Below, one piece after another: positions 4,507 through 57,219 of a DNA stretch of 57,631 bases. The DNA comes from Candidatus Kaiserbacteria bacterium (GTDB taxonomy: Bacteria > Patescibacteriota > Minisyncoccia > Phycocordibacterales > Phycocordibacteraceae): assembly GCA_011322135.1 (NCBI GenBank), contig DRNP01000043.1:1-57631 (forward strand), written 5' to 3'. How positions within the stretch are numbered: position 1 is the stretch's first letter; every line of letters begins with the position of its first letter. The notes under the pieces are model-generated. The model had not been told where the DNA came from. It ran no database searches and worked only from the letters and a program-made list of their open reading frames with translations. The position numbers and the translations under genes were made by a program.

Positions 4507-4587
4507 AACTATATTTTTCTGAATTCCTAGTCTGCACATTCGCCGACATACTTAAAAATAATAAAGTGCCGGTGAGTGTACAGGGTT

Positions 4588-39014: not shown

Positions 39015-39062
39015 ATGCGTACATTGCACGCACACTGTTTATAACACAGAAAACCAAAAGTA

Positions 39063-39653: not shown

Positions 39654-39658
39654 GTTTT

Positions 39659-40684
39659 TTATAATACACTTTTTTCCTCCGACGAACCCGACCCTACATC
39701 TCCAAGCTCATACACAAGAACATGCTTCGACGAAAGATATGCAAAGAAAATAAGCATCACGCCAATACTTGCAACAAACCATTCAGGCAATGGTGTCAGA
39801 AGAGCAACAAACATACATATCGCTAGAGCGAATATCGCCCAGTGAGCTCCGTTTTCGAGATAAAGCATTCTTTTTAAAGTCCCTCCGCGCACCAGCATTA
39901 ACGTTAGCGTGCGAACAAAATATGCTCCTATTCCCAATCCTGCAACTATCACAGGTACTGAAGTTGTGATGGCAAAAGCCCCGACGACACTATCCAGAGA
40001 AAACGCCATATCAAGCACACTTAAGTACAAGAAAAAAGCCACACCGGAGTGTACGACATTTTTTGCTTCTACACCAAGCGCTCTGGTAACACCTTCCATC
40101 GCAATAAACAGAACCGTCCCGAACAAACCACTCTCCAAAATAATCTCTGACTGGTGTTTTGAAAGTATCGCAACCAAAAGAAGTACTGAAAGCGCCAAGG
40201 CAATATTTATTGCTTCAAGCTGTCCCCAGCTCGCAAACTTTCGTTCTATTATTGTGAACCAATGCACGTCTTTCTTTTCATTAAAGAAATATCGGAGCGC
40301 TATAAGCAAAAGAAATGTTCCCCCAAACGCTTTTATTGCAGGCTCTGCTGCAGCTATTAACACTGCATATTTTGCAGGCTCTGTAAAAATGAGCACCGCT
40401 ACTGTGGATGGCGAAAGTGCCAAAACCACACTCACGATAAGCACCGGCAAAACAAAACGAACAATTCCTACAGACACCAAAACTCCCCATGTAAGAAAAA
40501 ACTGTTGCCAGCGCAATGGCATCTTTTCCAAAATCCTGGCATTGATAACAGCGTTATCAAATGAAAACGTTATTTCCAATACGGCGAGAGCAAGTGTGAT
40601 GAGAAAAGCCGGAAGACCTCCCCACACATACATTATTGAAAGCACAACCACTGATATGAGCACGGGAGTAAAAAGTAACTTCAT
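39659..40684 (-). CDS. DUF475/TerC-like integral membrane protein
   Basis: LEITFSFDNAVINARIL and a second FSLDSVVGAF repeat; about 9 TM segments. Confidence 0.7.
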   Translation of the reverse strand: MKLLFTPVLISVVVLSIMYVWGGLPAFLITLALAVLEITFSFDNAVINARILEKMPLRWQQFFLTWGVLVSVGIVRFVLPVLIVSVVLALSPSTVAVLIFTEPAKYAVLIAAAEPAIKAFGGTFLLLIALRYFFNEKKDVHWFTIIERKFASWGQLEAINIALALSVLLLVAILSKHQSEIILESGLFGTVLFIAMEGVTRALGVEAKNVVHSGVAFFLYLSVLDMAFSLDSVVGAFAITTSVPVIVAGLGIGAYFVRTLTLMLVRGGTLKRMLYLENGAHWAIFALAICMFVALLTPLPEWFVASIGVMLIFFAYLSSKHVLVYELGDVGSGSSEEKSVL

Positions 40685-40783
40685 TGAAAATTGAAAAAAT
40701 TAAAGATACGCCAATATGTTTATAAAGTATAGCAAACAAAAAACGTGGCGAGCCGACGGCTCGCCACGTTTTTTGTTTTTTTG

Positions 40784-40865
40784 TGCCCAGGAGAGGACTC
40801 GAACCTCCAAGCCTTGCGGCATATGCACCTCAAGCATACGCGTATACCAATTCCGCCACCTGGGC
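40784..40865 (-). tRNA. tRNA-Leu (GAG), type II long variable arm
   Basis: Reverse complement: gcccagg...tatgc-ttGAGgt-gcata-tgccgcaaggct-tggaggttcgagtcctct-cctgggc-a. Confidence 0.9.
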
Positions 40866-40927
40866 AGGTGTATCGCTACTATACCGAGAACTCGGCTTTT
40901 TTACAAACAAAAGCAATATGAGCTCCC

Positions 40928-41506
40928 CTATTCAGAAACTTTTTCTTCTTTGCTTTCCGAATCTTTTACTGTCTCTTTTTTGTCTGATGTTTCCGGATTT
41001 TCTTTTTCCGAATCTTTTACTGTCTCTTCAGAAGTTTTTTCCGATACTTCTTCCGAAACAGATTCTTCATTTGCGTTTGTATCGGAATCAGATTCTTCTG
41101 CTTTTTCTTGCGTTTCTTTTTCAGCAAAGTCATCGGTGGAGATATTCATTATGCGTGCATTGCGAAGCTGGCGACGCACAGCCTTTGCAGCTTTCTCACG
41201 AATAAAGTATAGCTTTGATCTGCGTACTTTCGAGCGCTTTACAATCTCAATTTTCTCAATGAGAGGTGTATACAGTGGAAATGTCTTTTCCACACCGATA
41301 CCTGAAAGAGTTGTACGTACTGTAAAAGTACCGCCTGCTTCAGATCCGTGCTTCACAGAGATAACGAGACCTTCAAAAATCTGAATTCGTGTTTTTCCAC
41401 GCTCAATAACTTTTTGATGAACTTTTACTGTGTCACCGGACTTTATACCGAGCTTGCTACGCTCCTCGCTTTTAACGGGAGAAATAATAGTATTCATGAG
41501 TGGCAC
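40928..41506 (-). CDS. rplS: 50S ribosomal protein L19 with acidic C-terminal extension
   Basis: GDTVKVHQKVIERGKTRIQIFEGLVISVKHGSEAGGTFTVR. About 70 aa Glu/Ser/Asp-rich tail. Confidence 0.9.
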   Translation of the reverse strand: MPLMNTIISPVKSEERSKLGIKSGDTVKVHQKVIERGKTRIQIFEGLVISVKHGSEAGGTFTVRTTLSGIGVEKTFPLYTPLIEKIEIVKRSKVRRSKLYFIREKAAKAVRRQLRNARIMNISTDDFAEKETQEKAEESDSDTNANEESVSEEVSEKTSEETVKDSEKENPETSDKKETVKDSESKEEKVSE

Positions 41507-41564
41507 AGTATCATATTAAAGGACAAACGCAAGCGTTTACACTAAAATACCTCTCTGAAAATAC

Positions 41565-42314
41565 CTATTTTATATGTATTTCTTTCTGTAAAAAGTCTGT
41601 ATTTTTAAAACGAGCGATGGCTATTTTAAATTCGTCCGGAATAGAAGCGATGAACACTTTACGGTCTCCGGAAATAAAAGGTACGTCCAGCATCCAAGCA
41701 TGAAGTCCGAGCCTGTTGAAACCCATGTCACACGCGTGGTTTGGAGCGTATAAGGAGTCACACACCACGGGGTGATGAATTGCTTTAAAATGTGTACGAA
41801 TTTGATGTGTTCGCCCGGTTTCCGGCATTGCTTTTACAAGAGCATGCGAACCTATTTCGCTAACAACTTCATACCGAGTCAGTGCTTCTCTCAGACGTCC
41901 TTTTGCTTTGGGTTGCGCACTTCTTAAACGAAAATCTTTTCTGGAGCGTCCTATTGGAAAACTGATTTTCCCGACTGCAGGTTTTGGCACACCATAAACA
42001 AAAGCAAGGTACGTTTTTTTTACATTATGGTTTTTAAATGCATTTTTTAGAAAATCATATGCATGCTTACTTTTTGCAAGAACAAGAGCTCCTGAAGTGC
42101 CTACGTCTAGGCGATGCACGATTCCCGGTCGCATAATAGTTTTTCCTGTGCGAAGCGTCATGGATTCGCCAACGTCTACAGCTTGTGGATATTTCTTTGC
42201 AAACCAATCTGAAACAGTTTCGCTTTCGTTATGACCATCCGGGTGTGTCATAATTCCGGACGGTTTATTTATAACAACAATATCTTCATCTTCGTATAAG
42301 ATTTCCAAATCCAT
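41565..42314 (-). CDS. RluA-family pseudouridine synthase (no S4 domain)
   Basis: HRLDVGTSGALVLAK catalytic Asp motif; KTYLAFV; HQIRTHF. Confidence 0.85.
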   Translation of the reverse strand: MDLEILYEDEDIVVINKPSGIMTHPDGHNESETVSDWFAKKYPQAVDVGESMTLRTGKTIMRPGIVHRLDVGTSGALVLAKSKHAYDFLKNAFKNHNVKKTYLAFVYGVPKPAVGKISFPIGRSRKDFRLRSAQPKAKGRLREALTRYEVVSEIGSHALVKAMPETGRTHQIRTHFKAIHHPVVCDSLYAPNHACDMGFNRLGLHAWMLDVPFISGDRKVFIASIPDEFKIAIARFKNTDFLQKEIHIK

Positions 42315-42322
42315 AATAATTT

Positions 42323-42399
42323 TGGTGGGCGCTGGAGGATTCGAACCCCCGACCTACCCGGTGTAAACGGGTTGCTCTGACCAACTGAGCTAAGCGCCC
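42323..42399 (-). tRNA. tRNA-Val (TAC), CCA encoded
   Basis: Reverse complement: gggcgct-ta-gctcagttggtcagagc-a-acccg-ttTACac-cgggt-aggtc-gggggttcgaatcctcc-agcgccc-acca. Confidence 0.9.
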
Positions 42400-42456
42400 T
42401 TCTTCAATATTTAGGCAATGGTCGCAAACTACTTTGCGCTTCCTGCATTGCCTTTG

Positions 42457-42538
42457 TGGGCATGAGAGGACTCGAACCTCCAAGCCTTGCGGCATACGCA
42501 CCTGAAGCGTACGTGTATACCAATTCCACCACATGCCC
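42457..42538 (-). tRNA. tRNA-Leu (CAG), type II
   Basis: Reverse complement: gggcatg...tacgc-ttCAGgt-gcgta-tgccgcaaggct-tggaggttcgagtcctct-catgccc-a. Close paralog of the Leu-GAG gene. Confidence 0.9.
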
Positions 42539-42735
42539 GTGAGCATACTGTGCCACACTTATGAGTTTTTTTCTACTATTTCAATGTGCAGATATATCAA
42601 AATGCTTTTTAGATTTGCACATAACATTATATGATATTAGCTTTACAAACGTGATATTGTTTAAATATCGGAAATATGTATTTTCGATATTAGTGGAATA
42701 GTCCACTAAAAAGTTCTTTCATATGGAGGTGCATC

Positions 42736-42993
42736 ATGAAAAAAATTTTTATATTATTTTTCTGTGCAGTTGTTGTTGTTGCTTTTGTAACAGCAACGAC
42801 GCATCAAGCTCAAATAATATGTCTGTCTGGCGGGTTTCTTGGAATCCTAATCGGTAACAGATACGCGGTCGTCTTAAAGCGATTACGTCGCAGGGAAAAG
42901 CTCCGTTTAAAGTTGTTTTATTACACGGCTTTTTGGAGTCTAACGGGCTTTTTGCTGATATCAAAAGCACTTTCTGCAATGGCACACCCGTAA
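42736..42993 (+). CDS. Small membrane protein (hypothetical)
   Basis: Strong SD ggaggtg 6 nt upstream of the ATG. Signal/TM FILFFCAVVVVAFV plus two further hydrophobic segments. Followed by a terminator. Confidence 0.45.
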   Translation: MKKIFILFFCAVVVVAFVTATTHQAQIICLSGGFLGILIGNRYAVVLKRLRRREKLRLKLFYYTAFWSLTGFLLISKALSAMAHP

Positions 42994-43024
42994 TCCTGGA
43001 AAAATTTCTACCTCTAAAAACTTG

Positions 43025-43063
43025 AAGACCTCTGATGTTTAATTAAACAGAGGTCTTGTTTTT
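43025..43063 (+). terminator. Intrinsic terminator
   Basis: aagacctctg-atgtttaattaaa-cagaggtctt followed by gttttt. Confidence 0.6.
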
Positions 43064-43171
43064 GCAAAATCAATATGCTTGCACACTTAAATTAAGTACC
43101 GTGAATATTCATATTCAATAAATACTCTAAACATTGAACGCTCACGATTTTTATAAAAAAGATTATCTCAC

Positions 43172-43201
43172 ATGCACGGCGCGGGCGCCCGCGCCGTGCA
43201 T
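43172..43201. repeat. Perfect 30-nt GC-rich palindrome
   Basis: atgcacggcgcgggc|gcccgcgccgtgcat. Embedded in AT-rich intergenic DNA, immediately next to repeat copy A. Confidence 0.7.
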
Positions 43202-43236
43202 AATGCTCCGCATTGTGCTCGTTATTTTTGGTGCCC
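43202..43236. repeat. 35-nt direct repeat copy A (tRNA-Arg 3' end plus its downstream flank)
   Basis: aatgctccgcattgtgctcgttatttttggtgccc, identical to 43403-43437. The period is 201 bp. Confidence 0.85.
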
Positions 43237-43402
43237 GCATTATTTAGGAATCGGTCACTCTCGCGGGTTTTTCTTTCACGCTTTGCGCTCATAAAAACCT
43301 CGCTCCCTCGACCCCCACTCGTCGTCACTTGTTCGCTTCGCTCACAAGGCTTCGCGACGACTCGGTTCGATTCCTACCGGTGCCACAAAAATATACTCAC
43401 CC

Positions 43403-43437
43403 AATGCTCCGCATTGTGCTCGTTATTTTTGGTGCCC
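43403..43437. repeat. 35-nt direct repeat copy B (overlaps the true tRNA-Arg 3' end)
   Basis: Identical to 43202-43236. Confidence 0.85.
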
Positions 43438-43504
43438 CCAGTAGGAATCGAACCCACATCAAGAGCTTAGAAGTCTCCTGTTCTATCCATTGAACTATGG
43501 GGGC
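43430..43504 (-). tRNA. tRNA-Arg (TCT), CCA encoded
   Basis: Reverse complement: gccccca-ta-gttcaatggatagaac-a-ggaga-ctTCTaa-gctct-tgatg-tgggttcgattcctac-tgggggc-acca. One A.G mismatch closes the anticodon stem. Confidence 0.85.
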
Positions 43505-43540: not shown

Positions 43541-43849
43541 CTATATGGAAGGATCTCTAAATACATATCCTCCCGATTCATATTTTTCTTGTTCTACTGC
43601 GCGAGTGTCAAATATTTTTTGAACATTCCTAAGGGCTTGATTATTTATAATGGTTGCCGAAGCTTGTATAGGAGCTATCGGTGTTTTCTCTGTAACAGTA
43701 TTGAAAAAAGTTACAGCTCCCCACGCAATTCCAACAATAAAAGCAATCGCGGCAAACGAAAGTAGCGTGAGCCAGTCACGCGCCGGTCGCAAACGCGAAC
43801 CATATCGAAGTTTCTTTACAAGAGCTGTTAGTGAAAATTGTGTTTTCAT
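43541..43849 (-). CDS. Single-pass membrane protein, last gene of the pilMNO-like operon
   Basis: TM WLTLLSFAAIAFIVGIAWGAV. Start overlaps the upstream stop by 4 nt. Confidence 0.5.
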   Translation of the reverse strand: MKTQFSLTALVKKLRYGSRLRPARDWLTLLSFAAIAFIVGIAWGAVTFFNTVTEKTPIAPIQASATIINNQALRNVQKIFDTRAVEQEKYESGGYVFRDPSI

Positions 43850-44388
43850 GATTTTTTTATTGTACTCGTTCCGGCAACAGAACCAACCTCCATTGTAAAC
43901 ACGGCAGACCAGTATGTTTTTTTCAAAACTGTTGCATGTTCAAGAGTTATTGTTTTAATGATGGCGTAATACGGAACGTTTTCTATTGCTCCCACCGTTC
44001 GCATAACCGCATCAAAGTTCCCTTTTACTTTTACAGACACGGTTAACATTGGTCTTTTACTGTCCGTCTTTGGAGATACAGATGCAACAGAAACTTTAGC
44101 GCCGGAAGCGCGTCCTGCCGTTTCCAGGACGTTCAAAAATGAAACAATATCAGTATCTGCCACAAAATACGATTTTATTGATGACTCTTCTCCGGAAAGA
44201 CCTGAAAGTATCATTTTTTCGGTATCTGCATGTTTTAAAGCTCCGTGCGTATTTTGTATTTCTTGTGAGAGAACGTTAACAGATGCAACAACTTCATTGA
44301 CATGATTGTGCCACCACCAAAATGCTCCAAGTACTACAATCAAGATTGTAAGCATTAAACTGAACAGATTACGTGCTGATTTTTTCAT
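43846..44388 (-). CDS. pilO: PilO-like pilus assembly protein
   Basis: N-terminal TM, a coiled segment, then an alpha/beta domain. Position after pilN with a 4-nt overlap. Confidence 0.55.
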   Translation of the reverse strand: MKKSARNLFSLMLTILIVVLGAFWWWHNHVNEVVASVNVLSQEIQNTHGALKHADTEKMILSGLSGEESSIKSYFVADTDIVSFLNVLETAGRASGAKVSVASVSPKTDSKRPMLTVSVKVKGNFDAVMRTVGAIENVPYYAIIKTITLEHATVLKKTYWSAVFTMEVGSVAGTSTIKKS

Positions 44389-44963
44389 GATTTAAATGCT
44401 CCAATAAGTGTAATTGTAAAAGGGATGCTCGAATCTTTAGCATAAGCATCGATAGGTAGCTTTACATCGCTGATAAAAGAGACTTTTTTCAAAGCGCGCT
44501 GGTATCTTTGCAAAGTGTCTCGCGTCAATGCAGTACCTGTAAGCATCATCTTTCCGTTCTTTTCTGCATCTGGTGCTGAATAAACAATTTGTCTCAAACT
44601 AATTCCATTATGTGGAACACTCAAAACCAAACGAATCGCTGTGCCACTCATAGACACCTTCCCCAGAGTTGATAAAAATACCGCATTTTGCTTTAGCACA
44701 CGCAGTCTGACTTCTGTATCTGTTATGTCTTGCGTAGCAAGTTGCGATTTAAGATTTTTTAAAACTTGTTGTTGATCTTCAGATTTACTTTTTAAAGATA
44801 AATATGTAGGGATCAACACAAGTCCGTATATAAAGACAAGTGTTGCTGTTACTGCAGTTGCTATTGTCGCAAACCGTACAAAGTACGATATGCGTATGGC
44901 GCGCAAGCGTGTCGACGGGAGAAGATTTATATTTTTATTTGTCATAATAGTCACGCAGTGCAA
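44385..44963 (-). CDS. pilN: PilN-like fimbrial assembly protein
   Basis: INLLPSTRL motif followed by a TM (FATIATAVTATLVFIYGLVLIP) and a coiled region. Confidence 0.7.
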   Translation of the reverse strand: MHCVTIMTNKNINLLPSTRLRAIRISYFVRFATIATAVTATLVFIYGLVLIPTYLSLKSKSEDQQQVLKNLKSQLATQDITDTEVRLRVLKQNAVFLSTLGKVSMSGTAIRLVLSVPHNGISLRQIVYSAPDAEKNGKMMLTGTALTRDTLQRYQRALKKVSFISDVKLPIDAYAKDSSIPFTITLIGAFKS

Positions 44964-46047
44964 GTCCTATTGTCGTTGCATATGCAAAAGACTGAGAATA
45001 ATCCACTGTTGGTAGCCATGTATCTCGAGATGCAAGATTTAAAAACACATCCCCCAGCTCGACCGGCAAGTTAAAGGAGCTTGAAAAATATTCAGGGAAT
45101 CCGCGCACAGTTGCATTTCCTCCAACAATCAAAACTCGCGAAATTGTTAGACAATCTTTTTCCGTGCGTGCGCGCGTCTGCCAATAGTCAATACGTCTCT
45201 TTATCTCTTCACGAATAACCGAGGCGGTTGAAAGCATCGCTTCAATATAATCATCATTTCCGCCAGATGAAACAATACCGTGTTCCATTTTTACCTTACG
45301 TGCCTCTTTTTCGTCTACACCAAAATATTTTTGCACAGCTTCTGTTAAGGCGTGTCCTCCTACATCAAGTGTAGTTGCAAAACGTGGAAGTCGGCGCTCT
45401 GTTATGACTATTTTTGTTGTCATTTTCCCGATATCGACAACCATAACTGTTTCGTTTATGTCCGCCGGCAAGATAGCTCTCATACTCGCAAACGTCTCAC
45501 TTTCCAGTGAGCGAGGCTCTATGTTCACATCATCAATAATTCGTAAAACGTTTTCTACAACCTTTCGTGCATATCCGACTCCGACCACCAGCGTCTTGTC
45601 ATCTATTTTATGAAGTGGAGAAATATCAAAAGATACTTCATCAGGCGGAAGTGGCACAAACTCATCTATGTGTTGCTCAACTTCCGTATACCATTCTTCT
45701 TGCGAATCACCTGAAACCAAGGTCTCGAACAAATATGATTTCGACTCCGGCAATGCAATATGTGCTGATTTAATTCCACGTTCTTTTGCCAGTTCACGCA
45801 AATGTTCCGCAACGGGCTCCGGTTCTACAATCTCTCCACTTGCCACAGCACCTTTTGGAAGTTTTTTTTCATCAAACGACGCCACTTCGAGACCGTATCT
45901 GTGCTCTTTCAAAAAAATCGCTTTGATACTGCTTGTCGATATTTCAAGACCTGCCGCAGGTAAAACAAGATAACGCGGAGGTGGAAAATAAATATGTACA
46001 AAACGTGACAGTGCGCTTTTATGCATCACGTACAGTATACAGAGCAT
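44935..46047 (-). CDS. pilM: Type IV pilus assembly protein PilM (actin-like ATPase fold)
   Basis: GLEISTSSIKA, VVDIGKMTTKIVI, VLIVGGNATVRGFPEYF. An alternative start is at 46026. Confidence 0.8.
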   Translation of the reverse strand: MLCILYVMHKSALSRFVHIYFPPPRYLVLPAAGLEISTSSIKAIFLKEHRYGLEVASFDEKKLPKGAVASGEIVEPEPVAEHLRELAKERGIKSAHIALPESKSYLFETLVSGDSQEEWYTEVEQHIDEFVPLPPDEVSFDISPLHKIDDKTLVVGVGYARKVVENVLRIIDDVNIEPRSLESETFASMRAILPADINETVMVVDIGKMTTKIVITERRLPRFATTLDVGGHALTEAVQKYFGVDEKEARKVKMEHGIVSSGGNDDYIEAMLSTASVIREEIKRRIDYWQTRARTEKDCLTISRVLIVGGNATVRGFPEYFSSSFNLPVELGDVFLNLASRDTWLPTVDYSQSFAYATTIGLALRDYYDK

Positions 46048-47220: not shown

Positions 47221-47307
47221 GGAGGGATGGCAGAGAGGTCGAATGCGCCGGTCTTGAAAACCGGAGTCTCAAAAGGACCGTGGGTTCGAATCCCACTCCC
47301 TCCGCCA
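47221..47307 (+). tRNA. tRNA-Ser (TGA), CCA encoded
   Basis: ggaggga-tg-gcagagaggtcgaatgc-g-ccggt-ctTGAaa-accgg-agtctcaaaaggacc-gtgggttcgaatcccac-tccctcc-gcca. Confidence 0.9.
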
Positions 47308-48300: not shown

Positions 48301-48323
48301 GGAAATCGTGACTGTCCCTATTT
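48301..48323 (+). repeat. 23-nt inverted repeat, left arm (contains the TCGTGACTGTCCC core)
   Basis: ggaaatcgtgactgtccctattt, a perfect reverse complement of 48988-49010. Confidence 0.9.
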
Positions 48324-48345
48324 ATTCAATATTCTTAGTTTTAAG

Positions 48346-48588
48346 TTATAGGTTTTTATATGTTTTTTCGTTGCGCAAACGTATTGAATCTATAATGAGT
48401 ACTTTCCCTTTTTCATAATGAAAAATAATTCTGAAATTTCCTTTTCTGAGTTTAAAGAAATCTGTATCTTTTACTTTCGTAATATTTAAACCTATTTTGT
48501 GTCCGTTTGTAAGCTGACTAATTATTTTAGATAAAAATAAACGGTCTTTAGCCGATATTTTTCTAAATAATTTCTCTTTTTTATCCAT
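48346..48588 (-). CDS. Type II toxin, RelE/ParE family
   Basis: 80 aa. FFKLRKGNFRIIFHYEKGKVLIIDSIRLRNEKTY pattern. Confidence 0.7.
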   Translation of the reverse strand: MDKKEKLFRKISAKDRLFLSKIISQLTNGHKIGLNITKVKDTDFFKLRKGNFRIIFHYEKGKVLIIDSIRLRNEKTYKNL

Positions 48589-48599
48589 ATACTATTTCT

Positions 48600-48851
48600 C
48601 TATCCGTCTATTTTCTTAAGAATTTTTTGTAGTTCGCTAGCCCTTAATCCTTTTCTACTGTTATCACGAATAGCGTCAAATACCGTATATTCATCTATAT
48701 CTTTTTTTGTATAAGAAACAGGGTTAATGATAATAGAATCACCTTTTGAATCAATGGAAATGTATTTAGTTTTCATCGCTCTACGCCACTCTATTGGAAG
48801 TGTTATTTGCCCTCTCTCTGTGACTTTTTGTATTTTTTGTATTGATTTCAT
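48600..48851 (-). CDS. AbrB/MazE/SpoVT-type antitoxin
   Basis: VTERGQITLPIEWRRAMKTKYISIDSKGDSIIINP swapped-hairpin motif. Upstream of the toxin. Confidence 0.7.
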   Translation of the reverse strand: MKSIQKIQKVTERGQITLPIEWRRAMKTKYISIDSKGDSIIINPVSYTKKDIDEYTVFDAIRDNSRKGLRASELQKILKKIDG

Positions 48852-48987
48852 CGTATTCTTATTATAAGAATTTCATATTTTCTGTCAACAAGTGTATTTA
48901 ATCACCTCGGGGTCGAATGAGATCAACGCCTGTTTATTACAGAAATTATCTTTTAAACTTCGCTGACTAAAGTGTCTACTTTTTGGA

Positions 48988-49010
48988 AAATAGGGACAGT
49001 CACGATTTCC
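48988..49010 (-). repeat. 23-nt inverted repeat, right arm
   Basis: aaatagggacagtcacgatttcc. Confidence 0.9.
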
Positions 49011-49136: not shown

Positions 49137-49583
49137 CTAAGCCGTATTCTTGGATGCCCGTGTGTTCGCACGATGCGCTTTGAAATATTTCCAAGCGATG
49201 AGTAGAAATGAGATGACGGTGACAATCTCAGCCATCTGGCGTGCGGCATCGTCACGGGTGTAGGGAAAGAGATCCATACCAAGCCCCTGAGATGAAGTGG
49301 TATTTGTCAGAGCAACAGAGATGAAGGCGAGCGGGAGTAGCCACACCGCGAGCTTGAGCCAGGATTTGAAGACTGCGCGCGAGACGAAGATAAGGACAAT
49401 GGCAAGCGGGAGGGAGTAGAGGGCGAAGAAGTATGAGGGTTGAGTGAAGTAGAAGTATATATGATCCATCCAGGAGCCATAGCAAGACGAGATTGTTTCT
49501 GTACACCAACGACTGAAGTAAAGAAATCCTATAGCTAATAGCGTGCCCAGCACTGGTATAAATTGGACGATTTTTGTTTTCAT
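49137..49583 (-). CDS. Four-TM membrane protein (hypothetical)
   Basis: CYGSW...FKSWLKLAVWLLPLAFISVALT. Distant paralog of 49669..50088. Confidence 0.55.
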   Translation of the reverse strand: MKTKIVQFIPVLGTLLAIGFLYFSRWCTETISSCYGSWMDHIYFYFTQPSYFFALYSLPLAIVLIFVSRAVFKSWLKLAVWLLPLAFISVALTNTTSSQGLGMDLFPYTRDDAARQMAEIVTVISFLLIAWKYFKAHRANTRASKNTA

Positions 49584-49668: not shown

Positions 49669-50088
49669 CTATTTCTTCAACCAGTAAATGCGAATTGACT
49701 GGATTAGAATAATGAAAAAAGATATGAGGATGTAGAGTGCGTACAATCCAAGTATCACATAAAATTTGATCGGGGTGGAAATGAAACCCGCACCGGCGTC
49801 TGGAGTCAAAACCGAAATAATCAAAGAGACAGTTACCCAAGGAACAGAGACACGAATCCAACTTGAAAAAATCCTATTATCAAGAAACCAGACAATTCCT
49901 AAGAATACTAAAATTATCGGTGCCCAAAAAAAGTCCATTTCGAGATAAAATAATAAGCCGTAATATGGGTAACACCACTTTGACGCATAACAGACATTAT
50001 CGTATCCAAGTGTGAGGAACGCTACTAACAGTAATGTAAACACCGCACTCCATATCAGTACATTTTTTTTAGAGATGATACGATACAT
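49669..50088 (-). CDS. Four-TM membrane protein (hypothetical), paralog of 49137..49583
   Basis: CYASKW...FSSWIRVSVPWVTVSLIISVLT. Starts 8 nt after the orphan fragment stop. Confidence 0.55.
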   Translation of the reverse strand: MYRIISKKNVLIWSAVFTLLLVAFLTLGYDNVCYASKWCYPYYGLLFYLEMDFFWAPIILVFLGIVWFLDNRIFSSWIRVSVPWVTVSLIISVLTPDAGAGFISTPIKFYVILGLYALYILISFFIILIQSIRIYWLKK

Positions 50089-50096
50089 AGCTTTTA

Positions 50097-50405
50097 TATT
50101 TTAATTACTAATATTCCTTCCAATGTTTTCACACTCGGCACATACAAACCATTATACGTCTTTAAGTGCTCGCGATGGAAGCGTGGTTTTGTGAACAAGT
50201 TTATTCTGTGTTTGTATGCAGATGAAACGACATACGTTTTATTGAGGCGTGGAAAATATGTAGCGATAATATTGTTGGTCGGCGTTTTGATATCCGAGAC
50301 AAGGGTTGTGTAGTTGCCTTGTCTATTTGTATTCCAAAAGTAATGGAGCGTAGCGGTGGCGTTTGTTGTAGTGCCATTTGAATAACTGAGAGAACGTATT
50401 ATATT
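50097..50405 (-). pseudogene. Orphan 3'-terminal fragment of the giant lipase-like gene
   Basis: 50125-50396 aligns ungapped with 51135-51406 (offset 1010; about 14 mismatches in 272 nt by eye). The frame stays open (IRSLSYSNGTTTNATATLHYFWNT...VKTLEGILVIKI*) but there is no start codon. Confidence 0.65.
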
Positions 50406-50487: not shown

Positions 50488-51081
50488 TTAAAGCAGTCCA
50501 AAACTTGGTATAGTAACAAAGAAAATTGGCAAAAGTATTATCCCTGCACTACTTATCGCAAGAACAAGCATGGTAAATACAGTAGCCCAGCTCATTGAAT
50601 GTGCATATCGTATTTTTTTATAAGTTGCCACTACGAATTCAACAAGAAAGAAAAGGGACTGAGTAATCGCGAGAATTAAAAATGCAATAAGAATCCAGAG
50701 AAACGCTGCGCTCGATACAACATACAAAAACCCTTGCGGTATGATTTCGGGTGACATACCCCATAGAACGAACAGAGCTATAAATATTGCAAGAAAAACA
50801 CTAACAACAGCGCCTGCACGCGAGAAAACTTTGGAACCAAGTTTTGATGGCAATATAAAGTGTCGATAGAGCATCAATACAACATATCCGTTAACTAGAT
50901 AGGTCACCACAGCAAGAAAGGCGCTCCATACCAAAGATCCCCCTTCAGCCTGCGCTTGCGACTGCACATATTGATTAAAACTTAAAACAAAAATTGTCAG
51001 CAATATGCCACCAATAATTGATAGTAAAAGCAGTAGTCGTGAAAACTTCGTTGGTTTTTTGATTAAGTAAGAGACTGACAT
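50488..51081 (-). CDS. Multipass membrane protein (hypothetical)
   Basis: About 6 TM segments. Starts 22 nt after the giant gene stop. Confidence 0.6.
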   Translation of the reverse strand: MSVSYLIKKPTKFSRLLLLLSIIGGILLTIFVLSFNQYVQSQAQAEGGSLVWSAFLAVVTYLVNGYVVLMLYRHFILPSKLGSKVFSRAGAVVSVFLAIFIALFVLWGMSPEIIPQGFLYVVSSAAFLWILIAFLILAITQSLFFLVEFVVATYKKIRYAHSMSWATVFTMLVLAISSAGIILLPIFFVTIPSFGLL

Positions 51082-51103: not shown

Positions 51104-54100
51104 CTAATAATCTATCTGCACAAATCCCTTCTCCGTTTTCACACTCGGAACATACAATCCATTATACGTCTTTAAGTGCTCGCGACGGAAGTGTGGTTTT
51201 GTGAACAAGTTTATTCTGTGTTTGTGTGCAGATGAGATAACATACGTTTTATTAAGGCGTGGAAAATATGTAGCGACAATGTTTTTGGTCGGCGTTTTGA
51301 TATCCGAGACAAGGGTTGTGTAGTTACCTTGTCTGTTTGTATTCCAAAAGTAATGGAGCGTAGCGGTGGCGTTTGTTGTAGTGCCATTTGAATAACTGAG
51401 AGAACGCATTGTAAGTATTGCGAAACCCGGACCAAATGAATGGCGAACAAGTTTGCTGTGGTAATTTCTGTGATGACGTTTGCGGTCACGTCTATAATCG
51501 CGATCATGATTATTATCGTGGGGTATCTTTTTCGCGAATAAATTTGGAATATGTAAGTTGTTGAAACTCCTCTCTATAGATCGTCCGTCCTTATGCCACG
51601 AGTCATCTAATTTTAAAAATGGAAATATTTTATGATATTTGTGATGGCGACTAAAACTTGGATATTTAGCTGTGGCAATAGTGAGCCAATTGCCAGCCTG
51701 GTCGGTAATCGTGGTGGAGGTTGCGGTAGAAGTGACTGTTGTTGATGATGTCTCATCTATGCCTGTAATTTGTATGCTTTTGGTAGAAGTACTGAAACCA
51801 ATTATAGCTTCTGGCGGAATGATGTCAGGAATTACAATACTTCCCTGCTTTGCATTATATTGAGTGTACGTTACACCGTCGCCACTGTAATTAACTTTTA
51901 GAGTACTACTTGCGGTCGGGTCGGTCGCCGGGTTGATTGCCAGCGTAGCAATAGTTGATGTCGCTGAAGGAATAGCGGCGAAAGTGGTAGACGCAACGAC
52001 AGTGTTTCCATTTTGTTCTTTAATATCTAGTGCAAAGGAACCGCTACCGATACCACGCATCACCACCTTTCCTGTCATACTTTGAGGCACCGAGAGCCAT
52101 TGCACTTCACCGAAACGACGATAATCAACTCCTGGAATATTGAACTCTGTTGATGTTGCGGTAGCACCGGTATAATTACCGGAAGTATTTATGAAACCGA
52201 GTGTGAGTGGAGAATGAAGAATAAAATGAAGCCGTGCCATGTTACCTGTGTAAGCGGGAGTTGAAGTACTAATGTATTTTGGAAGTGATGCAGTGGTTGA
52301 TGCTGTGATAATGGATGATAGAAGTGTACGAAGTTCAGAGACGTTAAATATATTGTCATGATGAGTACCAAAAAGTGCATCTGCTTTTTTCGAGTATCTA
52401 AGCCACCCATTGTATTTATTTAGATTCACCCAATACCTAGTATCCTTTCCACCATCAGCCCATAGTGCGCTTGGTGTTACAACTGTTCCATCTCCATCCA
52501 TGACCATCCTTGGTATGTATGATATGTGCGTTGATAAATTACAGCCATTGGATAACCATACTTTTGACTCTTCTGCGAAAGCCAGACATTTAAAAAATGG
52601 CAACTTCTCGTAATGAATCCCAGCTACAGTCTCATTTCCCCATCCAGCTATCGTGTAAAGATGTACACTGGTGGGTGGCGTCCATTTATCCAATGAAGCA
52701 TGGGTTGCTTTTGCGGCATGTAGAAGATTTACATTTGCTATCTGTGGATCAATTAGATCGTCATATGCGGGCACGTTACGCGTGCCTGCAGAATCGGTCA
52801 TAAAATTATACAAACCCTGAGCCCAGTTGATATTGCTTCCATAAGCATTGCTCCATGTTGGCAAAGTTGATGAAGAAATTGTAACGACAGGAGTAGAAAC
52901 GAGTTGGTTGTCGCTGTTTTTGAAATTATCAGCGTAAGAAAAATATGATTGCGATGGTAGAAGGTCATAAGTCATCGGCATGTTTTGTGCCAAGTCACGA
53001 GCTTTCTTGTTAGAAAGAAGAGTCGGTATACCAGCACCATATCCGTTAAGAAGAACCCCTATTGCGTCTGGTGTTCCGAGTTGTGGCGTGGCAATGAGTA
53101 TGACGTTATCAATGAGCCGTGCCGTGGTTGTCGCTCCAAGTTTTTGCATAAGTGCTTTGGCAAGTAATCCTCCGTTGCTGTGAGCAATGATTGTAACTTT
53201 TCCGGTTGGTGAAGTTGAGGCGAGATGTTTTAAGGTCTCAATAATGTATGGGTCATGCCCGGGCTTTGGTGCCTCAATATAACTAATGTGCCCATCTGCG
53301 AGTTTCCTTCCCTTGGTAATAAGGGTGTTGTATCCAAGTCGCCAGTCATAGGGAGTTGACGTCGCAATAATGTGGTACTTGGACTGCCAGTTTTTCATTT
53401 CTTGCAATAAATCTTTGTATACCGTATGATGAATCGCTTTATACACCATATGTACAGTCACTTGGGAAATAACTTTTGAAACTGCAATATTCTGGTCAAT
53501 GCTCGTTCCATCTGAGTTTAGTTTTAGTGAATTAGCTACAGTATCACTTGCAGGAGTCCACACTTTTTGATGAATCGCTTCGTCGTATAATGTGCTTCCC
53601 TCAATGCCGGGGAGGAAGAGGACGTTGGAGACTTTGGGGACTTTTGGCAAGCTCGTATCTTTGACGACAATAGTTCCTGCAGTGCTACAGTAATAATCAC
53701 CAACCCACGTATTGCAATAACCATTTGCAACTATGGTGCCTGTAAATGTAGAAGTCGCACCTTCTGCGTATAGCGCGATGCGACCGCCACCGCCAGCTCC
53801 AGAGACAATAGCACTACCTCCCCCGCCACCGTTTGCGTTAAACACGCCATTTCCAACGAGTGTCTTGGTGTGCACGAGTATGCTTCCACCGCTCCCGGAG
53901 GTATCGCCTTCGACGGAAATCGTACCGTTGTTAGTGAGCGTATCTGCGATATTGAGTGCGATTGCGCCACCACCGGCTCTGTAGCCACCGCTCCCAAAGT
54001 CGGTCGGGTTGTCAGCACTGCCATACGTCGAGGTTGCGCTGTTTCTGTACCCGATGCCACCATAGCTTGCTCCTGCGTATTGGTCACCATGTGCTGTGCC

Positions 54101-55231
54101 AGGTCCTTCTCTCGCCGGATAGCCCTTTCCCGAGAGGTCGATTGTTGAGCCGTTTGAAACGGTGAGGTCGGTGAGCGAGAGATCAAGCCGATGCTCCGGA
54201 GCTGTAGTGAGTTTCGAGGATCCTGAGATGTCGAGATTGCGTATAGTCGTGTCGGTTGCGTCCGCAATGCTAAGTGTCGACTTGCCACCCAGCGTCACGT
54301 TGGTTGCATTGAGGTGAACGCTATCGCCCAGAGTCACGTTCGACGCATTTGATAACGTGAAATTGGTTGCGGAAATGGTTGCTCCCGGTTCACTCGTTAT
54401 CTGTTTGCCCGACAAAAGGATGTTTGTAAATGTCGTGGTTTTGTTTGATTGGAACTGCCATGCTTTCGGGAGCATGAGTGTGTTTCCGGAGGTGTTTATC
54501 ATTCCCACCGTTCCGTCTCCACCGCATATTTTTGACCCGGATGGAGTTGCGCATTGCCCGGCGGCAGTCACTGTTCCGGAAAAACTAGATGTGGCATACC
54601 GGAGAAGGATGCGACCGCCACCGCCCGGGAAGTGGTATGAGCCATCATCGAAAAGTGCTCCACCCATTGCGGAAAATACTCCGGTGCCTGTGAGCGTATG
54701 AGTAGTGACATAAATACTGCCACCGCTAGACGCTGAGTACCCATCGGCAGATATACGTCCGTCGTTTTGAATCATGCCTGCCACTATGAGTTGCATCGCA
54801 CCGCCACCGGAACCGTATCCACCACTCCCAAGGTCGATTGGATGTAGTGCTGAACCGTATGTTGAAGTGGCGGTATTACCGATACCCACGCCACCATAGC
54901 TTGCACCGCTTCTGTAGTTTGTTGGCGACGGAGCTCCGGGACCTTCTCCAGCCGGGTATCCTTGAGCGTCTGCAGAAATAGACGACCCTTTGTCGACCAC
55001 TATATTATTTGCATGAATGATGACTCCTTTAAATCCCTTGCGACTTGGATCGCCTTGGAGTGTGAGTGTAGAACTACTGGCAACCCTGAGTGTGTCAAAA
55101 AAATACTCGCCCGGAGCAAGTGTTGTGTTGTTTGTGATGACGGTACTTGTGGCGGCGGCGTGTGTTGCTGTGGGGAATGTAACGAAAACGCAGAGCGTTA
55201 GTAACGTGAGGATATATATGCGAGCGCGCAT
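51104..55231 (-). CDS. 1375-aa secreted protein: duplicated Gly-rich beta-helix module + LCAT-like alpha/beta-hydrolase (lipase/acyltransferase) + beta-sandwich region + His/Arg-rich C-terminus
   Basis: Signal peptide LTLLTLCVFVTFPTATHA. Two ~125-aa repeats (GYPAGEGPG..ASYGGVG..GSGGY..GGG..; res ~85-210 and ~366-490). VLFLPGIEGSTL, PYDWR, IIAHSNGG (Ser685 codon at 53177-53179), MDGDGTV, THHDNIF. Confidence 0.8.
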   Translation of the reverse strand: MRARIYILTLLTLCVFVTFPTATHAAATSTVITNNTTLAPGEYFFDTLRVASSSTLTLQGDPSRKGFKGVIIHANNIVVDKGSSISADAQGYPAGEGPGAPSPTNYRSGASYGGVGIGNTATSTYGSALHPIDLGSGGYGSGGGAMQLIVAGMIQNDGRISADGYSASSGGSIYVTTHTLTGTGVFSAMGGALFDDGSYHFPGGGGRILLRYATSSFSGTVTAAGQCATPSGSKICGGDGTVGMINTSGNTLMLPKAWQFQSNKTTTFTNILLSGKQITSEPGATISATNFTLSNASNVTLGDSVHLNATNVTLGGKSTLSIADATDTTIRNLDISGSSKLTTAPEHRLDLSLTDLTVSNGSTIDLSGKGYPAREGPGTAHGDQYAGASYGGIGYRNSATSTYGSADNPTDFGSGGYRAGGGAIALNIADTLTNNGTISVEGDTSGSGGSILVHTKTLVGNGVFNANGGGGGSAIVSGAGGGGRIALYAEGATSTFTGTIVANGYCNTWVGDYYCSTAGTIVVKDTSLPKVPKVSNVLFLPGIEGSTLYDEAIHQKVWTPASDTVANSLKLNSDGTSIDQNIAVSKVISQVTVHMVYKAIHHTVYKDLLQEMKNWQSKYHIIATSTPYDWRLGYNTLITKGRKLADGHISYIEAPKPGHDPYIIETLKHLASTSPTGKVTIIAHSNGGLLAKALMQKLGATTTARLIDNVILIATPQLGTPDAIGVLLNGYGAGIPTLLSNKKARDLAQNMPMTYDLLPSQSYFSYADNFKNSDNQLVSTPVVTISSSTLPTWSNAYGSNINWAQGLYNFMTDSAGTRNVPAYDDLIDPQIANVNLLHAAKATHASLDKWTPPTSVHLYTIAGWGNETVAGIHYEKLPFFKCLAFAEESKVWLSNGCNLSTHISYIPRMVMDGDGTVVTPSALWADGGKDTRYWVNLNKYNGWLRYSKKADALFGTHHDNIFNVSELRTLLSSIITASTTASLPKYISTSTPAYTGNMARLHFILHSPLTLGFINTSGNYTGATATSTEFNIPGVDYRRFGEVQWLSVPQSMTGKVVMRGIGSGSFALDIKEQNGNTVVASTTFAAIPSATSTIATLAINPATDPTASSTLKVNYSGDGVTYTQYNAKQGSIVIPDIIPPEAIIGFSTSTKSIQITGIDETSSTTVTSTATSTTITDQAGNWLTIATAKYPSFSRHHKYHKIFPFLKLDDSWHKDGRSIERSFNNLHIPNLFAKKIPHDNNHDRDYRRDRKRHHRNYHSKLVRHSFGPGFAILTMRSLSYSNGTTTNATATLHYFWNTNRQGNYTTLVSDIKTPTKNIVATYFPRLNKTYVISSAHKHRINLFTKPHFRREHLKTYNGLYVPSVKTEKGFVQIDY

Positions 55232-55318: not shown

Positions 55319-55339
55319 TGCGTCGACTTCGTCGACGCA
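55319..55339. repeat. Hairpin tgcgtcgac-ttc-gtcgacgca (short version of 57115-57157)
   Basis: Same gtcgac-ttc-gtcgac core as the 20-bp stem upstream of the 254-aa paralog. Confidence 0.7.
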
Positions 55340-55356
55340 CGTGTTTAGACTAAGAT

Positions 55357-55399
55357 ACCTCCTTCATCTTTTTCGCCACCTGCAAGATATTAAAATCGT
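55357..55399. repeat. 43-nt block identical to 57167-57209 (shared 5' region of the giant gene and of the paralog pair)
   Basis: acctccttcatctttttcgccacctgcaagatattaaaatcgt. Confidence 0.9.
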
Positions 55400-55434
55400 G
55401 ACTGTCCCCATTTCTTCGTGACTGTCCCCATTTC
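55393..55434 (+). repeat. Two tandem 21-nt units carrying the CGTGACTGTCCCCATTT core
   Basis: aaatcgtgactgtccccattt + cttcgtgactgtccccatttc. Confidence 0.85.
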
Positions 55435-55499
55435 TTTGAGGTATTCCTTACCTTTTTGTTCTTTAGCTCTTTTGAACCCTGCATTGCGCGGGGTTCTTT

Positions 55500-56225
55500 T
55501 TATTCAATAACAAATGTCTTTTCTCCCACTTTTTTGTTGTAAGGGTTTCCGTAAGGCCCTGTATAAGTAACACTGCTATCGAAAACAGATAATTTTATGG
55601 TGTTATCTGTCATGAACGTGGCTTCTATCTCGTCTAGTAATCCATAGGACTTTGCATATGTCTGACTACCAACAAGCCGCGAACCCGGCACGTCTTGTAA
55701 TGCATTCATTCCGGGCTTGTAGTATGTAAGTTTTTTATCTGAAACAAAGACTATCGTAGTGCTACTTTGCAACACATTGTTTGCAAGTGTACTAGAACCT
55801 ACGTACGCTTCTTGCGACAAACTATACACTTGGTAGTACGATCCCTTTGCGTTGAACGATGCAACCAGAGCGAACCCATTATATAGGGCAATCAAAGAGC
55901 TGTTCGCTAGACCTTCTTCTTCGCTAAGACAATATGCTTCGCTCGGATTCGCACACCGCGCGGGCATAAATATTTGCCTCAAGAATGTTTCCCCGACCTC
56001 AGGTAAATTCGCATACTTCCCCTCTTTCTTAGTATAGAGCCGATCTTTCTCAAGAGAAGAGAGGTCAATACCAGCAAGCGGATTGGTCGAGGTTGCGACG
56101 GATGCTTCAGACGTTGAAGTTGCAATCTGGTCTTGAGTGGCTGGCACATGAGGACGCGAGAGTGCATACCAACTGGTACCGATGATTGCTAGCACAATCA
56201 TTCCGAGGGCAATCTTCATTTTCAT
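55500..56225 (-). CDS. Secreted/membrane-anchored hypothetical protein (paralog A)
   Basis: N-terminal TM, then ATSTNPLAGIDLSSLEKDRLYTKKEGKYANLP, shared with paralog B. Confidence 0.6.
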   Translation of the reverse strand: MKMKIALGMIVLAIIGTSWYALSRPHVPATQDQIATSTSEASVATSTNPLAGIDLSSLEKDRLYTKKEGKYANLPEVGETFLRQIFMPARCANPSEAYCLSEEEGLANSSLIALYNGFALVASFNAKGSYYQVYSLSQEAYVGSSTLANNVLQSSTTIVFVSDKKLTYYKPGMNALQDVPGSRLVGSQTYAKSYGLLDEIEATFMTDNTIKLSVFDSSVTYTGPYGNPYNKKVGEKTFVIE

Positions 56226-56346
56226 GTTGTCATAGTATCACAGACAACGTCTGCCTCTGGGAGACGTGCCAGCTCCTCAATTGAGGTATTCCTTACTTTT
56301 TTGTTCTTTAGTTCTTTTGAACCTCGCGCAATGCGGGGTTCTTTTA

Positions 56347-57090
56347 TTACAGCAATCCTAAATCGAACGACACGGTTCGATTTGTTTTTGGGGCAAGCAT
56401 TTCGGAAGATCCTCTGCTATCAAAAAGGCTGATGCTCAACAAGTTTCCATTGAACGAGAATTGCGAGATCTGCATGCCCATGCCAGCGTAGTACCAATAC
56501 GATTCTGATGCAGATAAAGACGACCTTGGGACGAGGGCAAAAGCGGTCATACCCGGACGATAGTAGAGAAGCTCCTCTCTCTGTCCTGGTAGATTGTTTA
56601 TGTATACGACAAACGTCTTGTTCTCTATCTGCGAGCCAAAATACATCAAAGATTGCCCGAGCTTCTCATGGAGCGCGTTATAGGTGACATAATAGGAACT
56701 TCCTTTTCCTGTAGGAACACTAAATAGGAAAATGTTATTTTTAGCAGCAATGATCCTGCTCTCAGGAATGATCTCTTGCCACACATTACAATAGTTACCG
56801 CTAAGATTTTCTACACATTCAGGCGCGAGCGCCTCCCATAATAATTCTTGTCCTGCTTTGGGAAGATTAGAGTATTTCCCTTCTTCTTCGGTATAAAGCG
56901 TATTCTTCTCAAGAGAAGAGAGGTCAATACCAGCAAGCGGATTGGTCGAGGTTGCAACAGGTGCTTCTGGCGTTGAAGTCGCGTTCATGTTTGACGCAAC
57001 CGGTGTGTGTGGATGCAAGAACGCGAACCATGCACCGAAGCCAACAAGAATAATGGCAGCGGTGGTGGCAATGATTGCCTTTCTGTTCAT
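56347..57090 (-). CDS. Secreted/membrane-anchored hypothetical protein (paralog B)
   Basis: ORF 56347..57111; likely start MNRKAII at 57090. ATSTNPLAGIDLSSLEKNTLYTEEEGKYSNLP. Confidence 0.6.
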   Translation of the reverse strand: MNRKAIIATTAAIILVGFGAWFAFLHPHTPVASNMNATSTPEAPVATSTNPLAGIDLSSLEKNTLYTEEEGKYSNLPKAGQELLWEALAPECVENLSGNYCNVWQEIIPESRIIAAKNNIFLFSVPTGKGSSYYVTYNALHEKLGQSLMYFGSQIENKTFVVYINNLPGQREELLYYRPGMTAFALVPRSSLSASESYWYYAGMGMQISQFSFNGNLLSISLFDSRGSSEMLAPKTNRTVSFDLGLL

Positions 57091-57114
57091 GAGCGAATGG
57101 TACCATAGCAATTA

Positions 57115-57157
57115 TGGAGAACGCGCGCGTCGACTTCGTCGACGCGCGCGTTCTCCA
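57115..57157. repeat. Perfect 20-bp GC-rich stem with 3-nt loop
   Basis: tggagaacgcgcgcgtcgac-ttc-gtcgacgcgcgcgttctcca, 25 nt upstream of the paralog B start. Confidence 0.8.
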
Positions 57158-57202
57158 GGCTGATACACCTCCTTCATCTTTTTCGCCACCTGCAAGATAT
57201 TA

Positions 57203-57219
57203 AAATCGTAGCTGTCCCA
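57203..57219 (+). repeat. Degenerate motif copy at the island right end
   Basis: aaatcgtagctgtccca. Confidence 0.5.

Follow-up and report, generated by a model that had tools for sequence, protein, structure and literature searches.

How do bacteria that synthesize no lipids of their own come by the membranes they need? Members of the candidate phyla radiation (CPR, or Patescibacteria) lack lipid synthesis and are rich in lysolipids, for which phospholipase A has been suggested as a source (PMC7242380), and the mechanisms by which they take up and break down lipids have not been identified (PMC11665869). This question is raised in concrete form by one gene on contig DRNP01000043.1 of a Candidatus Kaiserbacteria bacterium (assembly GCA_011322135.1), which we analyzed from position 1 to 57,631 of the forward strand (hereafter the window). 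The gene encodes a protein of 1375 amino acids (aa) that an earlier reading, made without database searches (hereafter the sequence-only reading), had described as a giant secreted beta-helix protein with a core resembling lecithin:cholesterol acyltransferase (LCAT). Our comparisons of sequence profiles and structural models give good support to an exported, catalytically intact esterase of the type of LCAT and lysosomal phospholipase A2 (LPLA2). They also brought to light a small membrane protein gene that accompanies the genes of this family and that the sequence-only reading had missed in its account of the gene context.

The catalytic core and its family

The protein is 100% identical to the NCBI entry 'hypothetical protein ENJ75_02985 [Candidatus Kaiserbacteria bacterium]', encoded on a 152.6-kb contig, and this exact match confirmed the earlier assumption that the source organism belongs to the CPR. 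It falls into no NCBIfam family, and neither it nor three of its neighbors matched a PADLOC defense model. A hidden Markov model (HMM) search against Pfam was significant for LCAT (PF02450), which covered aa 602–877 with 59.8 bits against a gathering cutoff of 21 (E = 3.7e-16); the same domain is precomputed for ~45 homologs. Other lipase families (PGAP1, DUF900, DUF676 and generic lipases) matched the nucleophile elbow only and stayed below their cutoffs, 40 bits short of LCAT. All of the motifs on which the sequence-only reading had based its assignment were found in place: VLFLPGIEGSTL at aa 537–548, PYDWR at 627–631, AHSNGG with Ser685 at 683–688, MDGDGTV at 911–917 and THHDNIF at 956–962.

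An AlphaFold2 (AF2) model of aa 525–1375, with a predicted local distance difference test score (pLDDT) of 84.7 and a predicted template modeling score (pTM) of 0.80, pointed to the same family. The top 12 Foldseek matches of this model in the Protein Data Bank (PDB) were all LPLA2 or LCAT, with generic lipases far behind. The LPLA2 entries (4x92, 4x97, 4x90 and 4x95) matched at E values of 8e-11 to 7e-10 with template modeling (TM) scores of 0.59–0.66 on the target, and the LCAT entries at 3.5e-7 to 1.7e-5. Both sets of alignments ran over ~430–510 columns, with TM scores of 0.54–0.66 normalized on the ~377-residue targets, and by this whole-model alignment the resemblance spans the overall fold, including the regions inserted into the alpha/beta core. 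The Pfam score and the structural matches together bear out the proposal of an LCAT/phospholipase-family hydrolase.

To place the catalytic residues, we used a profile alignment (hhalign) to human LCAT, represented by a sequence 100% identical to chain 4xx1_A, which gave a probability of 94% locally and 97.6% globally (E = 1.4e-11). It paired VLFLPGIEGS with VILVPGCLGN, PYDWR with PYDWR, AHS685NGG with GHS181LGC, DGD914GTV with DGD345DTV and THH958DN with IQH377LN, naming the protein studied here first. By this alignment the triad is Ser685-Asp914-His958: the serine and histidine picked out by the sequence-only reading align to those of LCAT and are conserved, but the aspartate is Asp914 and not Asp912. 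Conservation was counted in 83 relatives from independent genomes, at positions that align, and each of the three residues was present in every one (Table 1). YDWR was also invariant, whereas position 912 held D in 77 and E in 5 of the aligned relatives and position 957 was variable.

LPLA2 (PLA2G15) and LCAT, the best structural matches, have in common with this protein an alpha/beta core with family-specific insertions, the PG motif, PYDWR, the GxSxG elbow, the DGDxTV aspartate motif and the catalytic histidine. They differ from it in that identity is only about 15% (22% over profile-aligned columns), and in that the enzyme studied here is bacterial, Sec-secreted and encoded next to a dedicated gene for a protein with four transmembrane helices. 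The domain is also part of a 1375-aa protein here, together with a duplicated beta-solenoid, a pair of beta-sandwiches and a C-terminal module that varies among homologs. When PDB sequences were searched with the protein alone, there was no match; only the family profile reached Tle4, a type VI secretion system (T6SS) lipase effector, and small lipases.

Read directly, the N-terminus looks like a Sec signal peptide, as had been proposed, with MRAR followed by a hydrophobic core and a THA/AA junction. Of the 43 aligned family proteins, 39 begin with a comparable hydrophobic segment, and some of the other four are N-terminally truncated entries. No C-terminal transmembrane helix or LPXTG motif was found in any of the 43, so the surface display put forward in the sequence-only reading is unproven.

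Relatives of the protein are encoded in at least 449 species genomes (one genome per GTDB species), as judged by a scan for the elbow peptide pattern. The best 80 of these genomes are almost all Patescibacteria and include Kaiser-, Adler-, Moran-, Nomura- and Lloydbacteria, Paceibacterota and metagenome-assembled genomes labeled Saccharibacteria; four of the 80 are labeled Bdellovibrionales. A HMMER search of 1.84 billion cluster representatives returned 1310 relatives at E ≤ 1e-30 and 2820 at E ≤ 1e-3. The family is Patescibacteria-wide, and the close relatives found here lie almost all in Patescibacteria. In one metagenome assembly (locus L085, 2205–4985), the 926-aa LCAT-like gene of locus L084 is called as two 461-aa open reading frames (ORFs); the locus is otherwise identical, and the split may reflect a frameshift, a pseudogene or a fault in the assembly.

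The predicted solenoid stalk and the C-terminal modules

The hydrolase is preceded by a Gly-rich region of ~500 aa in which the sequence-only reading had recognized two copies of one module. The duplication is real, with aa 27–249 and 309–527 aligning at 43% identity over 227 residues (E = 6e-51, internal alignment), but the repeat unit measures ~225 aa and not ~125 aa. Neither the region nor its repeat, GYPxxEGPG...ASYGG...GSGG...GGGA, is covered by a Pfam family. An AF2 model of aa 26–530, built with 56 homologs, reached a pLDDT of 94.9 and a pTM of 0.91 and is all-beta, consisting of short, regularly spaced strands only. Foldseek found no significant structural match to it in the PDB (E of 0.014 or higher, TM scores of 0.2–0.3), and the weak neighbors were uniformly beta-helix adhesins: tapirins, the secretion domains of EtpA and HMW1, autotransporter passengers, pertactin and VacA p55. 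What the protein has in common with such adhesins (tapirins, TpsA/HMW1/EtpA secretion domains, autotransporter passengers) is an N-terminal region of 500 residues that is modeled as an all-beta solenoid; it differs in the weakness of these matches and in a Gly-rich repeat that belongs to no Pfam family. The model justifies speaking of a predicted beta-solenoid stalk, but because no match was significant, the earlier description as typical of right-handed beta-helix proteins is unconfirmed beyond the fold class.

This region is not confined to hydrolases. Many other Paceibacteria proteins carry it in fusion with domains such as DUF5011, DUF5018 and LTD, and among relatives of the protein studied here the start of the hydrolase varies from residue ~150 to ~900, so the stalk appears to be a modular presenting device of variable length. 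That hundreds of Paceibacteria surface proteins carry the module without a hydrolase would also suit a protein that is first of all an adhesin, in which the solenoid attaches and the hydrolase acts on non-membrane esters, such as polyesters or acylated glycans, or is vestigial. The weak elbow matches to PGAP1, DUF900, DUF676 and generic lipases would likewise suit a generic esterase. We consider this highly improbable, however, given that neither the triad nor PYDWR, a motif specific to LCAT, varies, that the match at fold level extends beyond the alpha/beta core to the whole LPLA2/LCAT structure (~430–490 aligned columns, TM score up to 0.66 on the target) and that LCAT outscores the other families by the margin given above.

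Beyond the hydrolase, the beta-sandwich-like repeats of the sequence-only reading correspond to two domains in the AF2 model, at aa ~1000–1100 and ~1110–1190 (model residues 476–575 and 586–664, pLDDT about 90). A His/Arg-rich stretch, HDRDYRRDRKRHHRNYH, is present at aa 1242–1258, as had been noted; rather than forming the tail of the protein, it lies within a linker predicted to be disordered (aa ~1191–1264), with a folded beta domain after it. The C-termini of the 43 homologs fall into at least three classes: a beta domain ending in Y, as in this protein (about 22 of 43), a PxKF-like domain ending in ...YSVVVGLR (7 of 43) and a helical tail (about 10 of 43). In at least 19 further loci the protein ends in a C-terminal beta domain of the type found here.

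A conserved membrane protein gene and possible functions of the pair

At 64 of the 71 loci with enough downstream sequence, a gene for a 130–150-aa protein with three to four predicted transmembrane helices (hereafter the partner) starts on the same strand no more than 150 nucleotides (nt) after the stop codon of the LCAT-like gene, often overlapping it by 4–20 nt. At three more loci the partner gene lies slightly beyond 150 nt. Tandem partner paralogs, in two to four copies, occur in nine or ten loci (candidates are L001, L005, L009, L029, L049, L051, L055, L064, L069 and L071); in L009 and L069 one paralog lies upstream of the LCAT-like gene, and L049 has a 254-aa ORF with seven transmembrane helices that resembles a fused or extended partner. 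The linkage also held in reverse. Four of four partners drawn from the protein database regardless of context are encoded 15–45 nt downstream of a PF02450 gene, and the remaining flanking genes differ at every one of these four loci. Because the partner and the PF02450 gene stay adjacent while their other flanks differ, the two genes form a conserved unit.

The basic termini of the partner imply that its N- and C-termini both face the cytoplasm. Its first outside loop contains a pair of cysteines, C33, which is invariant, and C39, which at least 90% of members conserve; further invariant residues lie at the cytoplasmic interface (Trp77) and in the fourth transmembrane helix (Ser123). Partner and hydrolase diverge together (Spearman rho 0.55, 0/999 permutations), with the partner evolving faster (mean identity 26% vs 46% for the hydrolase). 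A Pfam search of 20 members of the partner family returned only sub-threshold noise (DUF202 and DUF4418), and a protein-database search with the partner returned only entries labeled 'hypothetical protein'.

In the window, the partner HMM matched two ORFs, w139 and w148, and not w197, the ORF directly 3' of the LCAT-like gene; w148 is 44% identical to a gene downstream of the closest homolog, in L001. The two partner genes are set apart from the LCAT-like gene by an insertion. A 279-nt direct repeat (51135–51413 and 50125–50403, 94% identity) repeats the end of the LCAT-like gene in a second copy downstream; its copies differ at 16 nucleotides, in 7 synonymous and 8 nonsynonymous codons. The downstream copy has its stop codon 5 nt before w139, so the usual junction of 3' end and partner survives at the copy, and the arrangement is that of a 1010-nt segment with w197 inserted between the LCAT-like gene and the partners and flanked by the duplicated 3' end. 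Two ideas about this neighborhood were discarded. The 3'-end copy might have been the orphan C-terminal cassette of a polymorphic toxin, but it has no divergent tip; and w197, together with w241 and w254 on the other side of the LCAT-like gene, might have been members of the conserved cassette, but none has a homolog in 88 loci of other genomes or a match to the partner HMM. No Pfam family matched w197, w241 or w254.

A lipase gene beside a conserved second gene has a precedent in Tle4 (TplE), which is paired with the immunity protein Tli4 (PDB 4R1D) and is the bacterial protein of solved structure nearest in sequence to the family profile. The match of the profile to 4r1d_A (E = 1.4e-5) takes in the PG motif and a stretch of about 90 residues, and the motifs FxPGxxG, HSxGGL and LxPSxxY are common to both. 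Tle4 is an antibacterial, membrane-targeting lipase encoded beside its protective partner; here there is a conserved adjacent gene for a putative partner. The systems differ in that export here is by a signal peptide and in that the partner is polytopic and unrelated to the Tli4 solved with Tle4, and 4R1D is not among the top 50 structural matches of the hydrolase model. Neither the window nor the annotated flanks of 8 loci contained T6SS genes (VgrG, Hcp or PAAR).

One reading of the pair that follows this precedent is that of a weapon, in which the enzyme is a secreted membrane-lytic toxin against host or competitor cells, the partner is its cognate immunity protein and any lipid salvage is incidental. 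Besides the relationship to Tle4, the presence of LCAT-domain genes in T6SS effector islands (PMC3942780) speaks for it, as do the tight and often overlapping gene pair, the tandem arrays of two to four partner paralogs, as in immunity arrays, the faster evolution of a partner that nonetheless co-diverges with the enzyme, the variable C-terminal modules of the homologs and the orphan-like duplicated 3' end in the window. We nevertheless regard it as rather unlikely. The protein has a Sec signal only and no dedicated delivery system, the duplicated 3' end is too similar to the resident one to be a divergent orphan toxin tip, and the conserved 'toxic' part would be the catalytic domain and not the C-terminus. 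Moreover, the cassette is near-universal in very small genomes instead of varying between strains, which fits core physiology better than an accessory of competition.

Such conservation, across at least 449 species, would also be compatible with a housekeeping envelope enzyme that remodels acquired lipids on the cell's own outer leaflet, for instance by forming lysolipids or passing acyl chains to an acceptor, with the partner as a membrane-embedded docking or substrate-presenting subunit. It is established for LCAT and LPLA2 that they act both as hydrolases and as transacylases (PMC6027918), and CPR membranes are unusually lysolipid-rich. The partner has two invariant residues, Ser123 within the membrane and Trp77 at the interface, and in many loci its translation is coupled to that of the enzyme, as expected of a stoichiometric subunit. 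Yet a ~500-aa adhesin-like solenoid stalk, Ig-like domains and exchangeable C-termini suggest external reach or binding, no acceptor-binding feature was identified, and a fixed subunit would less readily account for the partner arrays; we judge an enzyme devoted to its own envelope to be distinctly improbable.

The reading toward which we lean is that of a Sec-exported, competent LCAT/LPLA2-type lipid esterase on a solenoid stalk that attacks foreign bilayers, with the partner protecting the producer or docking the enzyme. The hydrolase would be carried behind the ~500-residue stalk and followed by two Ig-like beta-sandwich domains and the exchangeable C-terminal module. Outside the cell, its LCAT-type membrane-binding and cap regions would bind the bilayer of a host or neighbor, and the enzyme, acting as a phospholipase A and perhaps also transferring acyl chains, would cleave acyl chains off glycerophospholipids. 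The foreign membrane would thereby be weakened, and the lysolipids and fatty acids set free could be taken up by the producer. The enzyme may in this way serve host-membrane attack or lipid scavenging, the two roles that the sequence-only reading had suggested. In the producer's own membrane, the partner might, by analogy with colicin immunity proteins and Tle/Tli pairs, confer immunity, or it might dock the enzyme.

The immunity proteins of pore-forming colicins have three or four transmembrane helices and about 110–180 aa, are encoded next to the gene for a membrane-acting secreted protein and act in the membrane of the producer. The likeness, by description, is a gene for a small polytopic protein beside one for a secreted membrane-acting protein; the difference is that the associated toxin here would be an esterase and not a pore former, and no sequence relationship is expected. 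Within the CPR, a secreted phospholipase has been proposed for Vampirococcus (PMC8080830). Vamp_34_196 of that organism (PMC8080830, PMC11665869) is similar in its proposed disruption of host membranes and supply of phospholipids to a cell that does not synthesize them, but, as far as our searches show, these reports of CPR secreted phospholipases do not include this LCAT-type multidomain family or a four-helix partner.

Several points weigh against an esterase that attacks foreign membranes under the protection of its partner. Sequence alone does not separate phospholipase A1 from A2, or hydrolysis from transacylation. The protein, in which no surface anchor was found, may simply be released from the cell. 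The loops that the partner exposes outside the cytoplasm are very small, it contains no known domain and it does not resemble known Tli proteins, so that immunity is drawn by analogy only. Finally, the partner genes lie 1 kb away in this genome, which makes their co-expression with the LCAT-like gene uncertain.

The locus in its window and the family in CPR biology

Table 1. Features of the LCAT-like protein and its locus, in window coordinates.
Feature	Protein position	Coordinates	Strand	Basis or remark
1375-aa secreted multidomain LCAT-like hydrolase gene		51104..55231	minus	ORF; database identity; full-length homologs at E=0
Signal peptide, MRARIYILTLLTLCVFVTFPTATHA then AA	aa 1-25	55157..55231	minus	read by eye: basic n-region, hydrophobic core, AxA-like site
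Gly-rich beta-solenoid module 1	aa 27-249	54485..55153	minus	internal repeat; AF2
Gly-rich beta-solenoid module 2	aa 309-527	53651..54307	minus	internal repeat; AF2
LCAT/LPLA2-like alpha/beta-hydrolase domain	aa 531-990	52262..53641	minus	Pfam PF02450, Foldseek, hhalign
Nucleophile Ser685 codon (AHSNGG)	aa 685	53177..53179	minus	aligns to LCAT Ser181; 83/83 relatives
Catalytic Asp914 codon (DGDGTV)	aa 914	52490..52492	minus	aligns to LCAT Asp345; 82/82 aligned relatives
Catalytic His958 codon (THHDNIF)	aa 958	52358..52360	minus	aligns to LCAT His377 (global profile alignment); 81/81 aligned relatives
Two beta-sandwich domains	aa ~1000-1190	51662..52234	minus	AF2 strands; conserved columns across 43 homologs
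Basic His/Arg-rich low-confidence linker	aa ~1191-1264	51440..51661	minus	pLDDT 37-54
C-terminal beta domain, end ...GFVQIDY	aa 1269-1375	51107..51427	minus	AF2 pLDDT about 90
Duplicated leader: 62-nt block and palindromic hairpin GCGTCGACGAAGTCGACGC		55320..55408	minus	repeat families D4, D8
w197, multi-transmembrane protein gene		50488..51081	minus	between LCAT-like gene and usual partner
Duplicated copy, last ~95 codons of LCAT-like gene		50125..50403	minus	94% identical, without start codon
w139, conserved four-helix partner family member		49669..50088	minus	partner HMM E 1e-34
w148, second, paralogous partner-family member		49137..49583	minus	partner HMM E 2e-26

Upstream of the LCAT-like gene, the sequence-only reading had noticed a 43-nt block in common with the tandem secreted paralogs and had taken it as a sign of co-regulation. 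The exact block (55357–55399 and 57167–57209, with 0 matches expected by chance) is real and is contained in a 62-nt leader block that is 90% identical between its copies. However, the second leader copy (57127–57218) precedes only the distal paralog (56347–57111, w254) and not the proximal one (55500–56225, w241). These two ORFs are 40% identical, have an N-terminal hydrophobic segment and are each followed by the same terminator-like hairpin (55474–55496 and 56319–56341), which lies within a 65-nt repeat; the true start of the distal paralog is probably an ATG 21 nt downstream of the annotated TTG. Homologs of the pair were not found near LCAT-like genes at the other loci.

The predicted fold of the leader is modestly better than that of shuffled sequences (z = -2.2), and a scan of the region for sigma-70 promoters found no more sites than in shuffles. 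A 13-nt sequence, GGGACAGTCACGA, occurs at five sites in the window: 48306, 48993, 55396, 55416 (exact) and 57206 (2 mismatches). It is restricted to intergenic DNA (6 hits vs 0.64 expected), is often followed by TTT and could be an operator, the end of a repeat element or a recombination site. Both GGGACAGTCACGA and the shared leader are absent from the 88 loci of other genomes, so the leader is specific to this genome and uninformative on the general regulation of the family. Co-regulation of the LCAT-like gene and w254 through the duplicated leader is possible, as a peculiarity of this genome.

Inverted copies of the same 13-nt sequence surround a low-GC cassette at 48306–49005, with a MazE/AbrB-type antitoxin (48600–48851, 28.7 bits) and a weak ParE-like toxin (48346–48588), an arrangement suggestive of a small toxin-antitoxin insertion. 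Roughly 5 kb away from the LCAT-like locus, a type IV pilus cluster (43846–46047) encodes PilM, a weak, sub-threshold PilN-like protein and one more small assembly protein, with tRNA genes nearby (five at 38941–43504 and tRNA-Ser at 47221–47307). Elsewhere in the window, the isoleucyl-tRNA synthetase (21310–24909) has a complete histidine-phosphatase domain (His_Phos_1) inserted in its catalytic domain, an architecture also present in locus L002 of another Patescibacterium. Two further large putative envelope proteins, one of 1142 aa with a peptidoglycan-binding domain (1111–4539) and one of 631 aa with DUF11 and NPCBM-associated repeats (18782–20677), both lack the beta-solenoid module.

Much of the background to this locus is already known, namely the enzyme class, the Pfam flag on the domain in public databases and the idea of CPR phospholipases. 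This multidomain family, its breadth across Patescibacteria and the four-helix partner appear to be undescribed; we found no prior description in the literature on LCAT or PF02450 in the CPR, although coverage was incomplete and this is weak evidence of novelty. Two unannotated families are defined by the analysis, the Gly-rich beta-solenoid module and the partner, both of which are labeled only as hypothetical in databases.

The CPR, or Patescibacteria, make up a large share of bacterial diversity, are mostly unable to synthesize fatty acids and phospholipids, and have membranes enriched in lysolipids. The LCAT-like enzyme and its partner provide a defined molecular candidate for the open question of how these cells acquire lipids. 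It is conceivable, although we put this forward only tentatively and think it on the doubtful side, that the two-gene cassette is the missing lipid-acquisition device of Patescibacteria, in which the stalked enzyme would remove lysolipids or acyl chains from the host bilayer, or directly transacylate them, while the partner in the CPR membrane would receive, dock or gate the flow and shield the cell's own lipids. If true, such a cassette would account for the high lysolipid content of CPR cells as well as for their borrowed membranes.

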